Positions 615-48,857 of a stretch of DNA of 64,000 bases are shown here, in pieces. The DNA is from Candidatus Stammera capleta (GTDB lineage: Bacteria; Pseudomonadota; Gammaproteobacteria; Enterobacterales; Enterobacteriaceae): the NCBI GenBank assembly GCA_015134335.1, contig CP043975.1:84350-148349 (forward strand), in the 5' to 3' direction. Each line of letters opens with the position of its first letter. The first letter of the stretch is position 1. The notes beneath the pieces were generated by a model. The model was not told the DNA's origin, did not search any database, and saw only the letters and a list, made by a program, of their open reading frames with translations. The position numbers and the translations under genes were made by a program.

Positions 615-687
615 AGCGGAAAACGAGATTCGAACTCGCAACCATAACCTTGGCAAGGTTATACTCTACCAATTGAGCTATTTCCGC
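615..687 (-). tRNA. tRNA-Gly (anticodon GCC)
   Basis: The reverse complement GCGGAAATAGCTCAATTGGTAGAGTATAACCTTGCCAAGGTTATGGTTGCGAGTTCGAATCTCGTTTTCCGCT aligns along its length with E. coli tRNA-Gly(GCC). Anticodon loop is TTGCCAA. No encoded CCA. Confidence 0.9.
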
Positions 688-14281: not shown

Positions 14282-14682
14282 TATTTATATAACATAATTT
14301 ATCAATTTAAAAAATATATAACTATTAAATACAAAACTATATAAAAAAATTTAAAAATTTAAAACATACAAAAAATTTAAAATTATAATATCTATAAAAA
14401 CTATAAATTTTATTTATTTGAAAAAAACATTAAAACATATAAAATAAAAAAATAATAAATACTATGTAAAATTAAATTTTAAAAAATTAAATACACAAAC
14501 TATTAATAAAATAAAATTAAAAAATAAATTTATAATAAAAATTTTAAATAATAATAATTTATATATATATATAAATATTAAATTTTAAATAAAATATATA
14601 AAGATATACCATATATAAAAAAGTTAATAAATAAAAAAAAACATTAACTATTAATAATTAAAAATTAAAATTATTTTAATGA

Positions 14683-15291
14683 ATAAAAAAAAAATGAATT
14701 CATTACATTCGTAATGATAAATATAAAAAATTATCTATTAAATATAATTTAAAATCTAGGTCTTGATTTAAAATATTTGAAATAGATAAAAAATATAAAA
14801 TTTTTAAAAAAAATAACAATATAATAGATTTAGGGTCTTCACCAGGCGGATGATCTAAATATTGTATTACTAAAATAAAACCTAAAGGTAAAATTTTTTG
14901 CTGTGATATAATTCCAATGCAAAAAATATATAATACATTTTTTATAAAAGGTAATATTAATAAAATTAAAATATTAAATATAATAATAAAAAAAACAAAT
15001 AAATTAATTATAAATAATATTATTTCAGATATATCACCAAACATAACTGGAATTTATGAAACAGATTATTATAATCAAAAAAAAATAATAAATAATATAT
15101 TATGATTATGTAAAAAAAAACTTATTAATAAAGGAAATTTAATTATAAAAATATTTTTAGGAAAATTGTTTAATAAAATATTAAAAAAAATAAAAAATAT
15201 ATTTAATTATATTAAAATTTTCAAACCACAATCTTCAAATTTCTTTTCTAAAGAAATATATATAATAGCTAAAAATTATAATAAAACTTAA
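14683..15291 (+). CDS. rlmE: 23S rRNA U2552 2'-O-methyltransferase RlmE/FtsJ (start codon uncertain)
   Basis: ...KKKW IHYIRNDKYKKLSIKYNLKSRSW FKIFEIDKKYKIF...IIDLGSSPGGW(TGA 14851-14853)SKY...DISPNITG...KIF.G..F, collinear with E. coli RlmE. It lies upstream of ftsH as in E. coli. There is no in-frame ATG: either ATA at 14683 initiates, or the ATG at 14679 is used after a 1-nt loss in the A10 run. Confidence 0.8.
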
Positions 15292-15311
15292 TTTTATAAT
15301 ATATAAAAAAT

Positions 15312-17076
15312 ATGAAAAACATTAAATTAATTTTTTGAATAATAGTTACATTAATATTATTATATATAATTAACCTTAATATTTATGAACATCCTTATAT
15401 TAATGAAATTAATTATTCTAATTTTTTAATGGATTTAAAAAATAATATTATTAAAAGAATAAGAATTAATAATAAAGAATTAAATATAATAACTAATTAT
15501 GATTATGCATATAAAGTATATATGCCCTTTAAAGATACTAGCTTAATTAATAAATTAATTAAAAAAAATATATTAATAGAAACTAACAATAATAATAATC
15601 ATAATTTTTTAATATCATTAATTATTTCATGATCTCCGATTTTATGTACATTAATTATAATAATATTATTAATAAAATACATTATTAATAATAATTTAAC
15701 ATTATTCAATAATAATAAAGCACAAAAATATAATAAAAATTTTAAAATAAATTTTAAACAAATAGCAGGATGCGAAGAAGTTAAAAATGAAATAACTGAT
15801 ATTATAGAATATTTAAAAAAACCTAAAAAATTTAAAAAATTAGGAGCTAAAATTCCTAAAGGAATATTAATGATAGGTCCTCCTGGAACAGGAAAAACAT
15901 TATTAGCTAAAGCAATAGCCAGGCGAAGCTAAAGTTCCTTTTTTTAATATTTCAGGATCAGATTTTGTTGAAATATTTGTAGGAGTTGGAGCAGCAAGAA
16001 TGAGAGCAATGTTTCAAAAAGCTAAACAATTAGCTCCAAGTATAATATTTATAGATGAAATAGATGCTGTTGGAAAAAAACGATCATCTCATCAATTACA
16101 AAGTAATGATGAAAGAGAACAAACTCTTAATCAAATGTTAGTAGAAATGGATGGTTTTAATAGTCAAAAAACAGTTATAGTTATTGGAGCAACAAATAGA
16201 CCTGAAGTTTTAGACAAAGCTCTACTTAGACCAGGTAGATTCGATAGAAAAATAATAATAAATTTACCAGATTTAAAAGGCCGTTATAAAATACTAAAAA
16301 TACATATAAAAAATATTCCTGTTAAAAAAAATATTGATATTAAAACAATAGCAAAAAGTACTTCTGGATTTTCTGGTGCAGATTTAGCTAATTTAATTAA
16401 TGAAGCAGCATTATTAGCAGCAAAAAAAAATCTTAAAAAAATTACTAATAAAGAATTAGAAAGCTCTAAAGATAAAATAATAATGGGAGCTTCTAGAAAA
16501 TCATTAATAATGAATCAACAACAAAAAGAATTAACAGCATATCATGAATCAGGGCACGCTATTGTAAGTATAATGGTACCATATCATGATCCTATACATA
16601 AAATAACTATTATTCCTCATGGTCAATCATTAGGTACAACTATGTTTTTACCTAAAAATGACAATATACTATTAAAAAAAACATTATTAGAAAGCAAAAT
16701 TTCTGCATTATATGGAGGAAGAATAGCTGAAGAAATAATATACGGATTTGAAAACATTTCTATAGGAGCTAGCAATGACATTAAAATAGCTACATATTTA
16801 GCTCAAAAAATGATAACTAAATGAGGTTTTTCTAAAAAAATAGCACCATTAATATATAATAAAAATATTTTAAATAATAAATATATATATTCAGAATATA
16901 TTAATAAAATAATTGATAAAGAAATACAATATTTAATAAAAAAAAATTATAAAATAGCTAAAAAAATATTAACTAAAAATATCAATTTGTTACATAAAAT
17001 GAAAAAAAAATTAATAAAATATGAAACATTAAACAAAAAACAAATATTTAATTTAATTAAAAAATATTCAATATAA
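15312..17076 (+). CDS. ftsH: ATP-dependent zinc metalloprotease FtsH, interrupted by a +1 frameshift at about 15920/15921
   Basis: Frame 0 (15312-15929) encodes the TM segments and Walker A ([15 protein letters not shown]), then AGG CGA AGC TAA. Frame +1 from 15922 encodes [31 protein letters not shown]...[11 protein letters not shown]...[10 protein letters not shown]...HESGHAIV...W GFS..., ending at TAA 17074-17076. Confidence 0.85.
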
Positions 17077-23661: not shown

Positions 23662-24014
23662 GGGGTTGTTTGGTTTTGACAAAATATATAAGTTCTAATG
23701 TGCATGTCGAGGTAACGGTAGGCCGCGTTAAAAACCGTAAATTTAGTTGCAAATAACAACATAAATTATGCTTTAGCAGCTTAAACTGTATAAAGCCGTT
23801 TTTATATATTATTTTTACTCTTTATAAATATAAAAATGTCATTTAAAAGAGAAAAAGTTATAAACGTCTATATTTATAACTAATAATTTCAATAGACTAA
23901 TTAATTATTAATTTTGTTTATTTAAAATAATTAATAAAATATTAAAATAAAACAAACATGTAGTAACAAAAGAATAAATAATTTTGGAAGCGGGTTCAAC
24001 TCCCGCCAACTCCA
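23662..24014 (+). ncRNA. ssrA: tmRNA (SsrA)
   Basis: The 5' end GGGGTTGTTTGGTTTTGAC...GTGCATGTCGAGG and the 3' end GGAAGCGGGTTCAACTCCCGCCAACTCCA match E. coli ssrA. The tag reading frame at 23749-23784, GCA AAT AAC AAC ATA AAT TAT GCT TTA GCA GCT TAA, encodes ANNNINYALAA. Confidence 0.92.
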
Positions 24015-24022
24015 TTATTTAA

Positions 24023-24094
24023 AGGTGATTAACTCAGAGGTAGAGTATCTCTTTTACAAGGAGAAGGTCGATGGTTCAATTCCATCATCACCTA
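24023..24094 (+). tRNA. tRNA-Val (anticodon TAC)
   Basis: AGGTGATTAACTCAGAGGTAGAGTATCTCTTTTACAAGGAGAAGGTCGATGGTTCAATTCCATCATCACCTA aligns with E. coli tRNA-Val(UAC). Confidence 0.9.
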
Positions 24095-25462
24095 TTTAAA
24101 TTTTTTTAACTGTTTATTAATTTCAAATATATCTTTATAAGATAACTTAGTAAAATTCTTTTCATAAATATACATTAAACTTGCTACACTAACCTCCAAC
24201 AAATTTTTCTTAGAAAAATTCAAAATTTTATTTAAAAAAAAATTTTTATAAAATTTATTTATAAAATTATTTTTTATAAAATATCTACTTAAAATACTAA
24301 ATAATTTTTCAATTCTAATAATTATTAATTTATTAATTTTAGGAATTGATATTTTTTTTATATTAGAAAAAACTTTTTTTAATTTAAATAAAAAAAAATT
24401 ATCCTTTTTATAATCAACTAATAAAATAGCTTTTCCTATATTATCTGCTCTACCTGTTCTACCAATACGGTGAATATATGAATTAATATCATAAGGAATA
24501 TCATAATTTATAATTAAATTAACATTATTAATATCTAATCCTCTTGATGCAATATCAGTAGCTATCAAAATATGTATGTAACCATTACGAAAATTATATA
24601 CAATTTTTTCTCTTAAATTTTGATTCATATCTCCATTTAAAGCAGAACAATTATATCCTTTTTTTTCTATTAAAGATGATAATTTTAAACTAAAATCTTT
24701 TGTTTTTACAAAAATAATTAATCTTAAGTATTTTTCTGATTCTAAAAATTTAAATAAAGTATCTAACTTGTTTTTATAATTAATATAACAAAAATATTGA
24801 ATAATATTTACATTATTATCTTTATTTAAAATAATTTCTTTAATAGGAGCCTTCATTATAGATTTAGTAATCTGTTTAATCTCATTAGGCATAGTAGCAG
24901 AGAATAAAGCTGTTTGATGAGTAACTAAAATTTTATTAATAATAAATTTAACATCATTTATAAAACCCATATGTAACATTTCATCTGCTTCATCTATTAT
25001 TAATATTTTAATATTAGAAATATCTATAGTTTTTCTATTAATATGATCGATTAATCTACCTGGAGTAGCAACTATTATATGAGGTTGTGTTCGTAAATTT
25101 CTAAATTGTATACAATATGATTGACCTCCATAAAGAGATACTATTTTTGTATTATTTAAATATTTAGAAAACACATTAAAAAAATTAGTAATTTGTATAA
25201 CCAACTCTCTAGTTGGAGATAATACCAAAGATTGCAATTTATAATTAGAATTAATATTATTTAAAATAGGTAAAACAAAAGCTGCAGTTTTTCCACTACC
25301 AGTCTTAGCTATAGCTAACACATCTTTTCCTTTTAATAATTCAGGAATACATTTACACTGTATACTAGTAGGGCTATTATAACCTATTTCATAAATAACT
25401 TTTAATAATTCTTTTTTTAAATTAAATATTCTAAAATTTAAATTAGAAACATGTGACTTCAT
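24092..25462 (-). CDS. deaD: DEAD-box ATP-dependent RNA helicase (DeaD/CsdA by synteny with pnp)
   Basis: 456 aa with AKTGSGKTAAF, PTRELV, DEADEM, SAT and HRIGRTGR. It lies downstream of rpsO-pnp as in E. coli, with nlpI missing. The TAG stop at 24092-24094 overlaps the tRNA-Val 3' end. Confidence 0.85.
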   Translation of the reverse strand: MKSHVSNLNFRIFNLKKELLKVIYEIGYNSPTSIQCKCIPELLKGKDVLAIAKTGSGKTAAFVLPILNNINSNYKLQSLVLSPTRELVIQITNFFNVFSKYLNNTKIVSLYGGQSYCIQFRNLRTQPHIIVATPGRLIDHINRKTIDISNIKILIIDEADEMLHMGFINDVKFIINKILVTHQTALFSATMPNEIKQITKSIMKAPIKEIILNKDNNVNIIQYFCYINYKNKLDTLFKFLESEKYLRLIIFVKTKDFSLKLSSLIEKKGYNCSALNGDMNQNLREKIVYNFRNGYIHILIATDIASRGLDINNVNLIINYDIPYDINSYIHRIGRTGRADNIGKAILLVDYKKDNFFLFKLKKVFSNIKKISIPKINKLIIIRIEKLFSILSRYFIKNNFINKFYKNFFLNKILNFSKKNLLEVSVASLMYIYEKNFTKLSYKDIFEINKQLKKFK

Positions 25463-25535
25463 ATATTATATACCATTGTAATAAAATTTAATAAATATTT
25501 ATTTATTATAAAATAATAATTAATTATTAAATTTA

Positions 25536-35176: not shown

Positions 35177-37075
35177 ATGTTATTTACAAAAAGTTATGAT
35201 TATAATGTTATTATTGTAGGAGGAGGTCATGCTGCTATAGAAGCTTCATATATATTAAGTAAAAAAAAATGTAGAACTTTATTAATAACATTTAATAAAA
35301 ATAAAATTGGAGAATTATCATGTAATCCTTCTATTGGTGGATTAGGGAAAAGTAATTTAGTAAAAGAAATTGATTCTTTATCAGGATTAATGGGTAAATT
35401 AGTAGATTTATCAGGTATTAATTATAAAATTTTAAATTCTAGTAAAGGTTATGCTGTAAGAGCTACTAGAGTACAAATTGATAAAGAATTATATAAAAAG
35501 AATGTAATATATTATTTAAATAAAAATAAAAAATATTTACATATTATAGAAGATGAAGTAATTGATTTGGTTATTTATAATAATATTGTATGTGGAGTTA
35601 AAACTCTTAAATATATAATTACTTCTTATATTGTAATTTTATGTGTTGGAACTTTTTTAGATTCTAAAATATTTATAGGTAATGATATTATTTATGCGGG
35701 GCGTTTAAATGATAATGGGTCTTATAAATTAGCTTTTAATTTAAAAAAATATTATCCATATTTTGGATATTTAAAGACTGGTACTCCTCCTAGACTAAAT
35801 AAATATACAGTAAATTTTAGTAATTTAGAAAAACAAGTTAGTGAAATAAAATTAATATCTAAATTCTCTTTTTTTAATTCATTAAGAAAAAATAAATTTA
35901 TTAAACAACATAATTGTTATTTAACATATACAAATTTAAATACTCATAAAATTGTTATTAAAAATTTATATAAAAGTCCATTATTTAATGGTTTGATAAA
36001 TTCTAAAGGTCCTAGATATTGCCCTTCTTTAGAGTATAAAATATATAATTTTTTAGATAAAAATCGACATAATATTTATTTAGAGCCTGAATCAATTTAT
36101 AATAATTATATTTATCCTAATGGGCTTTCTATGAGTTTTCCTTTAAATATTCAATATAAAATTATAAAATCTATAATGGGTTTAGGTTTTTCAAAAATAA
36201 TTATACCAGGATATTCGGTTGAATATATGTATTTAAATCCAATTTTTTTAAATAAAACTTTAGAAAGTAAGGTAATAAATAATTTATTTATAGCTGGTCA
36301 AATTAATGGTACTACAGGATATGAAGAAGCTGCAGCTCAAGGTTTAATTGCTGGTATAAATTCTTATTTAAAAATTAGTAATAAAAAATTATTTATACCT
36401 AAAAGATTAAATTCTTATATAGGTGTATTAATTGATGATTTATGTACAAAAGGTATTAAAGAACCTTATAGAATTTTTAATTCTAGATCAGAATTTAGTT
36501 TGTATTTGAGAGAAGATAATGCAGATTATCGATTAACTCCTATTGCTAAAAAATTAGGTTTAATTAATAATAAGAAGTGAATTTTTTTTAAAAATAAAAT
36601 GAATCAAATATATAAAATTTCAAAATTTATTATTAATAAAATTTATAATATTAATGATTTAAAAACTAAATGACAAAAATTATATAAAAATAAAAAAACA
36701 ATTCAAGCAAAATCTTTAATTTGTAATTCTTGTATTAAATTTAATAAAATAAAAAAATTTATTTTTAAAGATAAAAAAAAATTTTTATCTAATAAATTTT
36801 TAAAAGAAATAAAAATATTATTTATATATAAAGGTTATATTAAAAGACAAAAATTAGAACTTTTTAAATATAAATTATATGAAAAAATTTTATTACCTAA
36901 TAAGATTAAATATGAAAATATTAAAGGTTTATCAAACGAAGTAATACAAATATTAAATTATATTAAACCAAATTTTTTAGGTCAATTATTAAGAATTTCG
37001 GGGATAACTCCTATATCTCTAATGATTATTTATATTTATCTTAAAAAGCATAAATTAATTAATATTGTTGATTAA
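35177..37075 (+). CDS. mnmG: tRNA uridine 5-carboxymethylaminomethyl modification enzyme MnmG (GidA)
   Basis: MLFTKSYDYNVIIVGGGHAAIEA...CNPSIGGLGKSNLVKEIDSL...LKTGTPPRL...GPRYCPSLE...AGQINGTTGYEEAAAQGLIAG...REDNADYRL. Extended through TGA 36578-36580 to ...GLSNEVIQILNYIKP..LGQLLRISGITP. TAA at 37073-37075. Confidence 0.93.
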
Positions 37076-43622: not shown

Positions 43623-43673
43623 AATTATAGTAAAAACTATTATTTTATTATATGATATATATAATTAATTATT

Positions 43674-43746
43674 GGGGTTATAGCTCAATTGGTAGAGTAT
43701 CTGCTTTGCACGTAGAAGGTTAGCGGTTCAATTCCGCTTAACTCCA
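43674..43746 (+). tRNA. tRNA-Ala (anticodon TGC)
   Basis: GGGGTTATAGCTCAATTGGTAGAGTATCTGCTTTGCACGTAGAAGGTTAGCGGTTCAATTCCGCTTAACTCCA. The G3:U70 identity pair is present. Confidence 0.92.
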
Positions 43747-43778
43747 TATTAATAAAATTATATATAAAATAATTATAC

Positions 43779-43967: not shown

Positions 43968-44038
43968 GCGAATATATTATAAAGGTATTATATTAGCCTT
44001 CCAAGCTAATAATGTGGGTTCGAGTCCCACTATTCGCT
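43968..44038 (+). tRNA. tRNA-Gly (anticodon TCC)
   Basis: GCGAATATATTATAAAGGTATTATATTAGCCTTCCAAGCTAATAATGTGGGTTCGAGTCCCACTATTCGCT aligns with E. coli glyT. Confidence 0.88.
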
Positions 44039-46618
44039 TTTTATATTTATATATATATTATTTTTAATATTAATTATATTTTTAAATTTATTTAATTTTT
44101 TTATAATTTTAAATTTTATTTTTTTTATATAATAAATTTTTAATAAATATATATTTTTCTTAATAATTTTTTTTTCAGTTTTTGATAAATTTATAATTAT
44201 TAATTTTTTTATATTATTAATTTTATTTTTTTTTAAAATTTTTATTATATTTTTTATTATATTAAATATATATATTGTTTTTTTGTTTTTATATTTTGAA
44301 TAATTTATATATTTTATAATTTTATAGCTTAATATAGATGGTTTTTTTTTGTTAAAAATATTATTTATGAAAATAATTTTTTTTCATATATATTCTGTTA
44401 AAAAAGGAATAATAGGATGATTTATTAAAATAATATTTATGAAAACAATTTTTAATATTATTAAATTATTAATACTTATATATTTACTTTTTTTATATTT
44501 AAAAATTTTTTTAAACAATTCAATAAACCAATTACAAAAAATAGTAATTAAAAATTTTTGTATTTTTATACATAGTTTTTGAAATTTAAAATTTTTAATT
44601 AATTTTTTATATTGTTTAAGTAATTTATTAAATTTATATAATATTCAATAATTTATTAAGTTTTTTTTTATATATTTATAATTAAAATTTATAATATTTT
44701 TTATATTATAATTTAAATTTTTATTATTTTTAAAAAATTTTATTATAAATTTAGATATATTTAATAGTTTATTACAAAAATTATAACTATTTTTTAAAAA
44801 TTGAAAATTAAAATTAATTTTTAGTTTGTTTGATGAAATATTATATAATGTATATCTTAAAATATCTGTTCCATAAGCGGGTATTCCATTAGGAAAATAT
44901 TTTTTAGTATTATTAATAATTTTTTTTTTTAAATTATTTTTAATTAAATATTTAGTTCTTTTAATTATTAAATTTTTTAAACTTATGCCATATATTATAT
45001 CTTTAGGTGTAATTATATTTCCTGTTGATTTAGACATTTTATTGCCATTTTCATCAGTTATTAATCCTGTTATTAATACTTTTTTAAAAGGTATTAAATT
45101 GTAGGATTTATTTAATAATAATGGTGTTATTATTATCATTCGTGCTATTCAAAAATAAATTATATCAAACCCACTTACTATTAAATTTATAGGATGAAAT
45201 TTATGTGAAAAATTTTTAGGTCATCCTAAACTAGTTAAAGTCCATATTGATGATGAAAACCATGTATCTAAAATATTAATATCTTGTTTTAAATAAATAT
45301 TTTTATTTAAGTTATATTTTTTAATGATATGTTTTTTATTATATCCTAAATATATTTTTTTAAATTTATCATATCAAATAGGTATTTTATGACCTCAACA
45401 AATTTGTCTTGATATACATCAATCTTGAATATTTTTAATTCAAGAAAATAATAAATTTTTATATTTATTAGGTATAAAAATTATTTTTTTATATTTAATA
45501 TATTTAAAACAATTTTTAGTTAATGATTTCATTTTTAAAAATCATTGTTTAGTAAGTATTTTTATAATTTTTGTATTAGTTTTTGTACTGTAAGAAACAG
45601 GTTTAATTATTTTAATTGTTTTATAAATATATTTATTATTTATTAAAAATTTTATAATTTGTTTTTTATTTTTATATATATTTTTAATATTATTTTTAAT
45701 TTTTATACATTTATAATTTAATATATTAATTTTTTTTTTTAAATTACCATTTTTTTTTAAAATATTTATAATGTTAATTTTTTTTTTTTTAGCTTTTTTA
45801 AAATGTGAAATTTTATGACCAGGAGTTAAATTAATATAATATTTTATATTTTTTTTTTTTTTTAAAATTATAGGTAATTTTATATTATTTATAGGATTTA
45901 TAATAAATTTATATTTTTTAATAGTTTTATCATTTGTTAAAATTGCTGTATTAGATAATAAAAGTTCAGGTTTAGTAGTAGGAATAATAATATATTTATT
46001 TTTAGTATTATATAATTTATATTTAATAAAATATTGTTTAACTTTTTTTTTTTTTTTATATATTTCTATATCAGATAAAACAGTTTTAATTTTTACATCT
46101 CAATTAATTATTTTATAATCTTGATAAATTAATTTTTTTTTATATAGAATAATAAATGCTTTTTTAACTGCTTTAGAATAATTTTTATCTAATGTAAATT
46201 TTTTACTTTTTCAAAATATACTATTACCTAATAATTTTGTTTCTTTATATATTTTATATTCATATTTATATTTTCATTTTCATAATTCTTTTATTAATTT
46301 TTTTTTATCATATATTTTATATTTTTTTTTTAAATAATTTTCCACAATTATTTGAGTAGATATACCTGCATGATCTATTCCAGTTAGTCAAATAGTATTA
46401 AATCCTGACATTTTTTTATATCTAATAATTAAATCCATTATAGCTTGTTGATAAGCATGTCCTAAATGTAAATTACCTGTAATATTAGGAGGTGGCATTA
46501 TAATAGAGAAATTTTTTTTATGTTTAATATTTTTGTTATTTGGATTAAATAATTTATTTTTAAGTCAAAATTTATAAATATTTTTTTCTTTTATTAAAAT
46601 ATTTAAAATATTTTTCAT
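44030..46618 (-). CDS. valS: valyl-tRNA synthetase
   Basis: 862-aa frame under UGA=Trp from the ATG at 46616-46618: ...PPPNITGNLHLGHA...W DVKIKTVLSDIE...TTKPELLL...IQDW CISRQICW GHKIPIW Y...LDTWFSS...VSGFDIIYFW IARMI...GNKMSKSTGN...FPNGIPAYGTDILR...NHPIIPFLTEYIW. The TAG stop at 44030-44032 lies inside the tRNA-Gly(TCC) gene on the other strand. Confidence 0.92.
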
Positions 46619-46624
46619 TTTTTT

Positions 46625-48076
46625 TTATTTATTTTTTTTAATATATTTAGTAATAAATTTAATAATTAAATAAACAGTTCTTCCTGTTGCTCCATTTTTA
46701 TTTCATGCTGTACCAGCAATATCAATATGAGCTCATTTATATTTTTCAGTAAAAAAATTTAAAAAACAAGCAGAAGTAATTGTACCAGCATAATTAGAAT
46801 TACTACAATTTTTAATATCTGCAATATTAGATTGTAAATATTTATTATATTTTTTATATAGTGGTAATTGTCATATTATATCTTTAGTTTTTTTTCCAGA
46901 TTTTATTAATTTTTTAGCTAATTTATTATTATTACTAATTAATCCACTTATATTATTACCTAATGCTATTAAACATGCTCCTGTTAAAGTTGCTATTGTT
47001 ATTACTGTGGAAGGGTTATATTTTTTTATATATGTTAAAGTATCGCATAATACTAATCTTCCTTCAGCATCTGTATTAATAATTTCTATTGTTTTTCCAG
47101 ATAAAGATTTAATTACATCTCCGGGTCTAGTTGAATTATGATTAATCATATTTTCTGCACAACATAAAATTCCAATAATATTTAATTTAAGTTTTAATTT
47201 ATTAATAATATACATAATTCCTCATACTACAGCAGCTCCAGACATATCGTATTTCATTTCATGCATATTTAATGATGATTTTATTGATAAACCTCCTGAA
47301 TCGAATGTTAATCCTTTTCCTATTAATATTAATGGTTTTTTATTTTTATTATTATTATATTTAATTTTTATCATTTTAATTTCATTGGATGAAGCTTTAT
47401 TAACTGATAAATATGCGTTCATACTCAATTTTTTCATTTTTTTTTCATTTAAATAAGATATTTTAGTGTTTTTTCCTATTATATATTTGTATGTTTTATT
47501 AAGAATATAATTAGAATTACATATATTTGGAGGTGTGTTACATAAATTTTTAGTTTTGTTAATACCACTAGATATAATTTTACTATTATTAATTATTTTT
47601 TTATATTTTAAAATATTTATTTTATCTGTTTCAAAATATATATTTTTATTTAAAATTTTTTTTTTTTTAGTTTTAAATGTTAAATATTTATATATTAAAT
47701 TTTCAGTTATATGAATAATATTAAATAATTTTCAATTTAATTTTTTATCATTTAAATTGTTTATTAAAAAAATTATGTTTTTATATTTTTTTTTTTTTAT
47801 TATTTTTAAAGATTTAGTAATTAAAATTTTTAAAATATTATATTTTAATTTTTTTTTATTATATTCAATTAAAAATATATCTTGGTTTTTATTTATATTA
47901 GATTTAATTTTATGTATATTATATTTTTTTTTAATAAATTTATATTTATTAATTTGTTCATTAATAATATTATTGTATATATTAGTAGGATTATTATATT
48001 TTTTATTTACAAATATAATTGTACATTGATATTTATTATAGTTATTATTAAAATTTGTTTCTATTTTATATTTCAT
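46625..48076 (-). CDS. pepA: leucyl aminopeptidase PepA
   Basis: Three track ORFs (47732..48076, 47222..47437, 46871..47215) share one frame joined by TGA codons. Contains ...LCNTPPNICN...GKGLTFDSGGLSIK...MKYDMSGAAVVW G...NTDAEGRLVLCD...ATLTGAC...KW AHIDIAGTAW. TAA at 46625-46627, 6 nt before the valS ATG. Confidence 0.92.
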
Positions 48077-48742: not shown

Positions 48743-48769
48743 ATAAAAAAAAATATAAAATAAATAAAA

Positions 48770-48843
48770 CAGGGGCAGAAGGAATTGAACCCTCAACCTA
48801 TGGTTTTGGAGACCACTGTTCTACCTAATTAAACTATGCCCCT
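48770..48843 (-). tRNA. tRNA-Trp with unchanged CCA anticodon
   Basis: The reverse complement AGGGGCATAGTTTAATTAGGTAGAACAGTGGTCTCCAAAACCATAGGTTGAGGGTTCAATTCCTTCTGCCCCTG aligns with E. coli tRNA-Trp. Anticodon loop is CTCCAAA, discriminator is G73, and the D stem is GTTT/GAAC (U11:A24). Confidence 0.9.
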
Positions 48844-48857
48844 AATTTTTTTTTTAT

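Follow-up and report, generated by a model that had tools for sequence, protein, structure and literature searches.

The 64-kb window analyzed here (64,000 nucleotides of contig CP043975.1 from Candidatus Stammera capleta, a tiny gut symbiont of tortoise beetles) carries a gene for the membrane protease FtsH, an ATP-dependent zinc metalloprotease. This gene, ftsH, as encoded is not one uninterrupted reading frame. All translations reported here were made under translation table 4 (UGA = Trp). The upstream open reading frame (ORF) specifies two transmembrane (TM) segments, the periplasmic FtsH_ext, the Walker A motif GPPGTGKT, and the helix LLAKAIA. Following GCC at 15918-15920 it continues as AGG CGA AGC TAA, such that its product ends in AIARRS. 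The remainder of FtsH, comprising beta2, the pore-1 loop IFVG, Walker B (IIFIDEID), the second region of homology (SRH), HESGH, the Glu ligand, and the C-terminal helices, is encoded in the +1 frame (Table 1).

A preliminary description of this window had placed the break at the same coordinates (ATG at 15312, GCC at 15918-15920, TAA at 15930-15932, and a +1 frame extending to 17076), all of which hold under table 4. It had also argued that the TAG at 15916-15918, which closes the +1 frame, confines the frame change to 15919-15929 (11 nt), and we find the same. Removal of one base at 15920 or 15921 restores the frame as described, and removal of the C at 15919 does so equally. The inserted base may be either a C that turned GCA into GCC-A or an A placed between GCC and GGC. 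The longest run at the junction is 2 nt (CC, GG). A scan for frame junctions flanked on both sides by 60 or more open codons identified ftsH as the sole intragenic frame junction in the window. The other frameshifts mentioned in the preliminary description do not occur in mid-gene at that threshold and must lie near gene ends, as does the A10 tract of rlmE. On the minus strand opposite ftsH there are two antisense open stretches, at 15503-15928 (142 codons) and 15903-16283 (127 codons); the frame change in these is the mirror image of the insertion, and they are not separate genes.

Table 1. Positions of the ftsH frame junction, its flanking elements, and other features of the window bearing on its decoding.
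Feature	Position	Strand	Remarks
Upstream ORF, FtsH residues 1-203 then out-of-frame RRS	15312..15932	+	206-aa product P0121
TAG closing the +1 frame on the 5' side	15916..15918	+	+1 frame open from 15919
Heptamer GCC_AGG_C at the junction	15918..15924	+	zero-frame Ala-Arg; +1-frame GGC = Gly204
Extra base, one of C, C, A	15919..15921	+	deleting any one restores AIAGEAK
Downstream frame, FtsH residues 204-587 and TAA (17074-17076)	15922..17076	+	384 codons, starts GGC
TAA ending the upstream frame	15930..15932	+	three codons past the junction
First canonical start in the downstream frame, ATG	16000..16002	+	begins 358-aa recorded product P0009
tRNA-Gly(GCC), cognate for +1 GGC	615..687	-	
tmRNA	23662-24014	+	tag peptide ANNNINYALAA
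mnmG (gidA), intact	35177..37075	+	686 bits vs cutoff 525
tRNA-Ala(UGC), sole tRNA-Ala in window	43673..43747	+	presumed P-site tRNA on GCC if a shift occurs
tRNA-Trp, anticodon CCA (loop CUCCAAA)	48769-48844	-	111/119 window Trp codons = UGA

The two pieces of ftsH abut on the NCBIfam FtsH_fam profile, with the upstream piece covering positions 4-216 and the downstream piece positions 217-598, leaving neither gap nor overlap. As encoded, they score 131.5 and 563.5 bits, both under the FtsH cutoff of 600, and the protein obtained after repair of the frame scores 714.4 bits against this equivalog cutoff (TIGR01241 / PRK10733). Only the repaired protein passes, and the two pieces are not juxtaposed by chance. 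Between them, the two frames show the TM/FtsH_ext region, Walker A, the pore-1 loop, Walker B, the SRH, HExxH, and the Glu ligand. The repaired protein aligns with E. coli FtsH 7vhp over residues 4-595, and in this alignment the break falls between A206 and G207 of the E. coli protein, in the loop region at the end of the Walker-A helix.

Apart from the junction, the gene appears well preserved. There is no further stop or indel across the 587 codons of the repaired ftsH, and at columns invariant in all other sequences the repaired protein keeps 29 of 30 residues upstream and 124 of 125 downstream. This amounts to one departure on each side, and intact orthologues show 0-3. Between 4.4 and 6.8% of the substitutions possible in the 384 downstream codons would create TAA or TAG. 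If the downstream frame were unconstrained, the chance of a stop would reach 50% after 10-15 substitutions (0.9-1.3% divergence) and 95% after 3.7-5.7% divergence. The lack of decay in this frame suggests that the insertion is very young or that the frame is still under selection, with the insertion being tolerated. With respect to the features expected of a nascent pseudogene, ftsH has an interrupted frame with a real lesion and lacks further degeneration or relaxed constraint. That ftsH is essential in this organism is an assumption made by extension from E. coli.

Outside of the rRNA operon, the G+C content of the window is 11-18%. TGA codons within its reading frames specify Trp (111 TGA versus 8 TGG in 57 window ORFs), and tmRNA and 16 tRNAs, trnW(CCA) among them, are encoded. 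The source genome comprises 260,485 bp with ~14% GC, and both ftsH pieces are recorded from it (P0009 and P0121). Repaired FtsH is closest to ~36 proteins from NCBI and Logan, with 60-66% identity, each of which is encoded on a single contig of 240-326 kb. The gene order rplU-rpmA-obg-...-ftsH-secG-nusA-infB is common to the window and those related genomes. Published Stammera genomes use code 4 and have kept trnW(CCA) (PMC8629427), and they lack prfB (PMC10540940). We infer from gene order, FtsH similarity, and the combination of code 4 with trnW(CCA) that the window belongs to a Stammera-clade genome.

Homologs from the Stammera clade (36 FtsH of 585-609 aa) and from five outgroups (Makana, two Nardonella-type weevil symbionts, Buchnera, and Wigglesworthia) were all continuous through the junction, and the three relatives that were compared at the DNA level read ATA GCW GGA GAA at this position. 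Because every orthologue is uninterrupted, the insertion is lineage-specific, and judging from these alignments the GCC_AGG_C site is certainly not a feature of the Stammera clade. In a collection of 5.8 billion clusters, the only proteins that exceeded 70% identity to one or the other half of FtsH were the window's own two products. A scan of species-representative genomes returned no sister strain, and conservation was tested at the depth of the clade. The preliminary description had termed the junction motif universal. This holds for Glu205, which is invariant in 41/41 FtsH sequences, but not for residue 204, which is Trp in four Stammera-clade FtsH (AIAWESK / AISWEAQ), Ser in one, and Gly otherwise. 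As a side observation made from the proteins, one substitution turning GGA into TGA would suffice for Trp204 under code 4.

The extra base is also present in an independent assembly. Logan, which assembles runs of the SRA independently, contains a contig (SRR10017628_619) from the raw Illumina run SRR10017628 that equals window positions 14383-16647 at 2265/2265 bases, including GCAATAGCCAGGCGAAGCTAAAG, and the 206-aa stub ending in AIARRS is likewise recorded from Logan. Both assemblies come from one read set, such that the match is one of consensus and not of allele frequency. The agreement shows that the extra base is in the reads and on the path chosen by two assemblers, and that it is not an artefact of assembler or curation. 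Exact look-ups of P0009 and of the code-11 fragments 16000-16824 and 15429-15632 returned no contig, and only P0121 led to the Logan contig. Related Stammera genomes were generated from Illumina 2x150 reads with MEGAHIT and curation that included the correction of local assembly errors. Given the Illumina origin of the reads, indel artefacts of long-read sequencing are not at issue; a Nanopore or Dcm artefact at the CCAGG within the site was considered and dropped in light of the Illumina/MEGAHIT data and the agreeing Logan assembly. The neighbouring run SRR10017631 yields CP043978.1, another genome of the clade. We did not find ftsH discussed in the published Stammera paper or its supplement, and a literature search for run SRR10017628 gave no match.

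Considered together, these observations are best explained by a genuine and lineage-specific frameshift lesion of very recent origin, which reached a high frequency by drift, and not by programmed recoding, an interpretation to which we attach an even chance of being correct. A single base was inserted into ftsH of one Stammera-clade strain, and the lesion would have risen by drift in a bottlenecked, asexual, and vertically transmitted symbiont. Standard decoding would yield a 206-aa membrane-anchored stub ending in AIARRS, and full-length FtsH would depend entirely on occasional unprogrammed +1 slips in the 11-nt span or on a minority of genome copies that are still intact. The function of FtsH would then be lost or strongly reduced, with the gene at the onset of pseudogenisation or awaiting reversion. 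We infer the very young age of the lesion, drift as the cause of its frequency, and the reduction in function. A fresh loss-of-function or hypomorphic lesion is the default explanation for reduced symbionts, and it fits the erosion beside ftsH that is described below. The Buchnera population genomics of Moran and co-workers in 2009 reportedly revealed a high flux of new inactivations by single indels, which also struck genes that are conserved elsewhere.

Several observations weigh against a fresh lesion. ftsH is uninterrupted in every other Stammera-clade genome examined, such that a true loss would be exceptional, and for any one gene it is improbable to catch a dead ORF within ~1-4% divergence, before a second lesion. 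The insertion occurs in an atypical mutational context, outside of any homopolymer and within a G+C-rich dodecamer, GCCAGGCGAAGC (15918-15929); in the 57 kb of non-RNA sequence, no more than four dodecamers contain 9 or more G/C. Moreover, the site matches the Ty1 heptamer in its A-site half (AGG_C, with +1 GGC), and the rare codon CGA follows; a random insertion would put AGG at this place in only ~1% of cases. Universal retention, the odd context, and the Ty1-like AGG_C favour survivorship, that is, an allele that is partly rescued. Very recent inactivation and tolerated, unprogrammed +1 frameshifting are alternatives that the present evidence cannot separate.

Rescue of this kind, in which compensated (corrective) +1 ribosomal frameshifting within the 11-nt span supplies enough FtsH for the insertion to persist, is possible although clearly less probable than a fresh lesion. 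Two shift points can be envisaged. With GCC in the P site and a slow AGG in the A site, +1 GGC would be read by tRNA-Gly(GCC) to give the wild-type AIA-G-EAK; with AGG in the P site and the rare CGA in the A site, +1 GAA would be read to give AIA-R-EAK. Because residue 204 varies (W, S) and Glu205 is invariant, a shift one codon later (AIA-R-EAK) could be productive: residue 204 tolerates substitution, and both shift points keep Glu205.

The identity of the junction codons is consistent with such rescue. Their A-site half is the same as that of CUU_AGG_C in Ty1 and ABP140. Since the only tRNA-Ala in the 64-kb window has the anticodon UGC, GCC would be read, weakly, via U34:C wobble; tRNA-Gly(GCC) is present, and tRNA-Gly(UCC) is also encoded in the window. 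The zero frame presents two rare Arg codons in tandem, AGG (27 of ~400 Arg codons in the window) and CGA (16 of ~400), recalling the shiftiness of AGG_AGG in E. coli. GCC and GGC each account for <2% of their own codon families, whereas the relatives use GCW and GGA. When all single-base insertions were enumerated in 56 genes, a random insertion placed AGG in the corrective A site in only 0.9-1.1% of cases and a stop codon there in 6-8%. The downstream frame is pristine, and endosymbionts, like mitochondria, may retain partly compensated indels (PMC5009743). An explanation by corrective shifting also gains from length-biased sampling, in that tolerated alleles would outlast intact-looking dead ORFs by far.

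Other observations argue against corrective shifting. The site is not conserved among the clade and outgroup orthologues compared. As the preliminary description had recognized, AGG is an ordinary Arg codon in this window. It is used 26 other times (~6.5% of ~400 Arg codons), including at invariant Arg positions of AtpA and AtpD, and the seven other AGG-C contexts are all in intact genes. The AGG/AGA ratio of 0.09 lies within the range of the other NNG/NNA pairs (0.025-0.10), suggesting that the rarity of AGG reflects mutational bias and not special avoidance. In addition, mnmG is intact. MnmG belongs to the U34 modification pathway, which in E. coli lets tRNA-Arg(UCU) read AGG. An ORF of 458 codons at 24092-25465 on the minus strand was considered as mnmE and rejected, as its motifs (AKTGSGKT, DEAD, SAT, and HRIGRTGR) identify a DEAD-box helicase, which leaves mnmG as the only one of the two that was confirmed. 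By inspection, tRNA-Ala(UGC) would re-pair on the +1 codon CCA at only 2/3 positions, with a mismatch at the first. No tRNA-Arg gene was found in the 64-kb window, and the inventory of tRNA-Arg and tRNA-Ala covers these 64 kb of the 260-kb genome. No stimulatory element was identified: the 20 nt 5' of the site hold no motif resembling a Shine-Dalgarno (SD) sequence, although the 3' end of the 16S rRNA keeps the anti-SD CCUCC, and the RNA fold of 15915-16010 (96 nt) is no better than that of shuffled sequences (z = -0.74). The nearness of the flanking stops is uninformative, since the alternative frames of ftsH hold a stop every 7-8 codons anyway. Finally, a review of recoding contains no validated sense-codon +1 rescue of a chromosomal gene of an insect endosymbiont (PMC5009743).

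A bolder reading, to which we give a fairly low probability, is that ftsH is kept working by corrective +1 frameshifting at GCC_AGG_C, possibly at AGG_CGA_A, with A-site logic like that of Ty1. In such a scenario, the allele would persist since a translation apparatus that reads 93% of Trp codons through a C:A mismatch would tolerate the slip. Given that Trp codons are mostly UGA and that the tRNA-Trp in the window has the anticodon CCA, decoding must proceed mostly via a C34:A mismatch, unless a second trnW is encoded elsewhere. Trp decoding by tRNA-Trp(CCA) has already been described for Stammera and Zinderia (PMC10540940).

Function could alternatively be supplied by a within-host mixture of intact and frameshifted ftsH copies, either across the symbiont population or inside polyploid cells, with the consensus showing the commoner, broken allele; we regard this as unlikely. 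Both assemblers give a single path, and the popping of bubbles hides minor alleles. In the related Stammera study, each species was represented by DNA of 1-3 individuals. Polyploidy is common among reduced symbionts, and deleterious alleles can rise through bottlenecks at transmission. However, no second allele was found in any database, nor was a full-length or junction-spanning product with at least 70% identity, and a scan of JGI metagenome contigs recovered neither ftsH allele on any contig. The broken allele would also need to be in the majority, which would be hard to keep stable.

Also unlikely, and somewhat less probable still, is a sequencing or assembly artefact, in which the deposited base is not present in the organism. 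The indel is alone in an otherwise flawless conserved gene, it falls in a local island of G+C, and one read set underlies both assemblies. Motifs of the GGC type trigger sequence-specific Illumina errors. Nevertheless, two assemblers gave identical sequence over 2.3 kb, Illumina consensus insertions outside of homopolymers are very rare, and the pipeline corrected local assembly errors. A chimera with the ftsH of another bacterium is not credible, since the k-mers at the site are flanked by AT-rich sequence specific to Stammera. The assembly indel that the preliminary description had offered as one explanation thus appears unlikely, as the independent Logan assembly has the same base.

The same description had offered two separately made polypeptides, whereby the 206-aa stub and a separately initiated C-terminal polypeptide would form a working FtsH, an arrangement that we consider highly improbable. 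The break falls in a loop region at the end of the Walker-A helix, a GGAG lies 8 nt upstream of the ATG at 16000, and the 358-aa product is recorded as a called gene. Yet this GGAG is merely coding sequence of the conserved VGVGA, and neither fragment reaches the cutoff of the FtsH model. From 15919 up to 16000, the downstream frame lacks ATG, GTG, and TTG codons; ATT (15949) and ATA (15973) are the only candidates, both without an SD sequence. The ATG at 16000 is 26 codons past the junction, and its product would be without Walker A, beta2, and the pore-1 loop IFVG, on which grounds the option of two polypeptides was rejected. Proteolysis depends on the Phe of this pore-1 loop (F228 by the older numbering of the E. 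coli protein).

A genuinely programmed (selected and regulated) +1 site of the prfB, Ty, or antizyme kind is scarcely credible: it is suggested only by the likeness of the heptamer to CUU_AGG_C and a nearby zero-frame stop, stops occur every 7-8 codons anyway, no stimulator or regulatory logic is apparent, and the finding that the preliminary description had itself named as refuting, orthologues in frame and without the context, is what was observed (41/41 orthologues in frame, with the context absent in the DNA of three relatives), which refutes a conserved programmed site.

The neighbourhood of ftsH shows further lineage-specific changes. The start of rlmE (14679-14694) consists of ATG AAT followed by A10 (14685-14694), and the body of the gene (to 15291) is in the +1 frame, which places the problem at codon 5. 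Contig SRR10017628_619 also has A10 at this start. With one A fewer, the reading is MNKKKWIHYIRND..., and RlmE equivalog models give this product 166-172 bits, under their cutoffs. The rlmE start is a candidate for a frameshift of the poly(A) transcriptional-slippage type or, alternatively, for a non-ATG start. A poly(A/T) frameshift in rlmE has been reported in the leech symbiont Providencia siddallii (PMC10540940). In the relatives L081 and L083, greA sits between obg and ftsH (1863-2333 and 1844-2314, respectively). It is absent in the window, where a search for remnants from obg to rlmE found nothing above noise and a 400-bp AT-rich spacer is present at 14282-14678. Conversely, rlmE is intact-looking in the window and is either a 51-aa call or missing in L081 and L083. 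The losses of greA and rlmE are lineage-specific and adjoin ftsH, such that the lineage is visibly shedding or damaging genes next to it.

Additional features of the window concern the handling of aberrant products and the distribution of homopolymers. In E. coli, several proteases, FtsH among them, remove proteins that carry the ssrA tag, and a broken ftsH may affect the clearing of products tagged by the tmRNA, including truncated stubs that would result from the genome's own frameshifts. In total, 81 A/T runs of at least 9 nt were counted in the genome sequence examined. T13-T15 runs (plus strand, hence A-runs for genes on the minus strand) are present at 45849-45863 and 46043-46057 inside an unbroken 865-aa ORF (44030-46624, minus strand). 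Further very long homopolymers, at 47656-47668, 47786-47798, and elsewhere, coincide with unbroken long reading frames and are potential hot spots of slippage.

If the insertion is a fresh lesion, it provides one more snapshot of erosion in a 260-kb symbiont genome, in which not even a protease retained throughout the other Stammera lineages is spared, and the ftsH record would be better annotated as disrupted than as two proteins. A frameshift-disrupted gene in a reduced endosymbiont is a known phenomenon and would be novel only if compensation were shown. If FtsH is still made, the locus would represent a natural and tractable case of translational indel compensation in a bacterial genome, would tie corrective frameshifting of the organelle type to insect symbionts, and would offer a defined heptamer with which to probe how bacterial ribosomes behave when tRNAs are reduced to a minimal set. 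To our knowledge, no sense-codon rescue of a 'problem indel' has been described before in a bacterial chromosome outside of organelles, and a compensated ftsH would be the first.

Several known systems resemble the ftsH junction in part. As at prfB (CUU_UGA_C), a bacterial +1 shift would take place over a slow A-site codon near a zero-frame stop. However, prfB, a gene that Stammera lacks (PMC10540940), has a stop codon at the shift site, an SD-like element 3 nt upstream, autoregulation, and wide conservation, none of which are found at ftsH. The preliminary description had drawn its parallels with Ty1 and Ty3, and these hold for the A-site half, which is the same as that of Ty1, but not for conservation or a stimulator. 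The shiftiness of Ty1 is attributed to weak U34 pairing in the P site, a slow AGG, and an abundant tRNA-Gly for GGC (PMC5009743, Atkins et al.). Like CUU_AGG_C of Ty1 and ABP140, the ftsH junction has AGG in the zero frame, GGC with a cognate tRNA-Gly in the +1 frame, and a presumed U34 P-site tRNA with a weak third position. It differs in that the P-site codon is GCC instead of CUU, re-pairing in the +1 frame is 2/3 and not full, AGG is not demonstrably tRNA-limited, the site is not conserved, and the ribosome is bacterial. If ribosomes shift at ftsH, the site would resemble Ty3 (GCG_AGU_U) in its Ala P-site codon decoded by a tRNA with non-cognate wobble, in a slow AGN codon next, and in a shift that yields Ala plus the +1 amino acid without good re-pairing. 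Ty3 relies on a 3' stimulator of 14 nt, since shiftiness intrinsic to the site is only ~2% (PMC5009743); no stimulator was found at the ftsH site.

Tandem rare Arg codons in E. coli (AGG_AGG and AGA_AGA) are likewise reminiscent of the AGG CGA that precedes the stop in the zero frame of ftsH. Shifting at the E. coli codons is high only with over-expressed mRNA and depleted tRNA (PMC5009743), and codon rarity in the window differs in following mutational bias and not special avoidance. Corrective +1 frameshifting in mitochondria likewise concerns tiny genomes without recombination, in which a one-nucleotide insertion has struck a gene that looks essential and is possibly compensated during translation, and endosymbionts have been grouped with mitochondria in regard to compensated indels (PMC5009743). 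In mitochondria, the sites are shared between species and the codons concerned are rare or unassigned, whereas the ftsH site is not conserved and its AGG is assigned and used.

Among endosymbionts, poly(A)-tract frameshifts in Buchnera and Blochmannia are rescued by transcriptional slippage, according to Tamas et al. (2008) as cited in PMC5009743 and PMC10540940. In those cases, as possibly at ftsH, product may still be made from a frameshifted and otherwise conserved gene. Runs at the ftsH junction do not exceed 2 nt, as compared to the ~9 nt or more that serves as a criterion, and transcriptional slippage, which the preliminary description had judged unlikely, therefore does not apply. Endosymbiont indels occur overwhelmingly in homopolymers (PMC3622351), and unlike such erosion indels, that of ftsH is in a G+C-rich non-repeat and affects a gene that the rest of the clade has retained. 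In other respects, the closest likeness to a fresh lesion in ftsH is to the fresh single-indel inactivations of Buchnera and Blochmannia, where one indel likewise interrupts an otherwise conserved gene of a tiny, AT-rich, and vertically inherited symbiont. As in other systems undergoing genome erosion, lineage-specific losses are found nearby here too, with greA lost in the window and rlmE in relatives.

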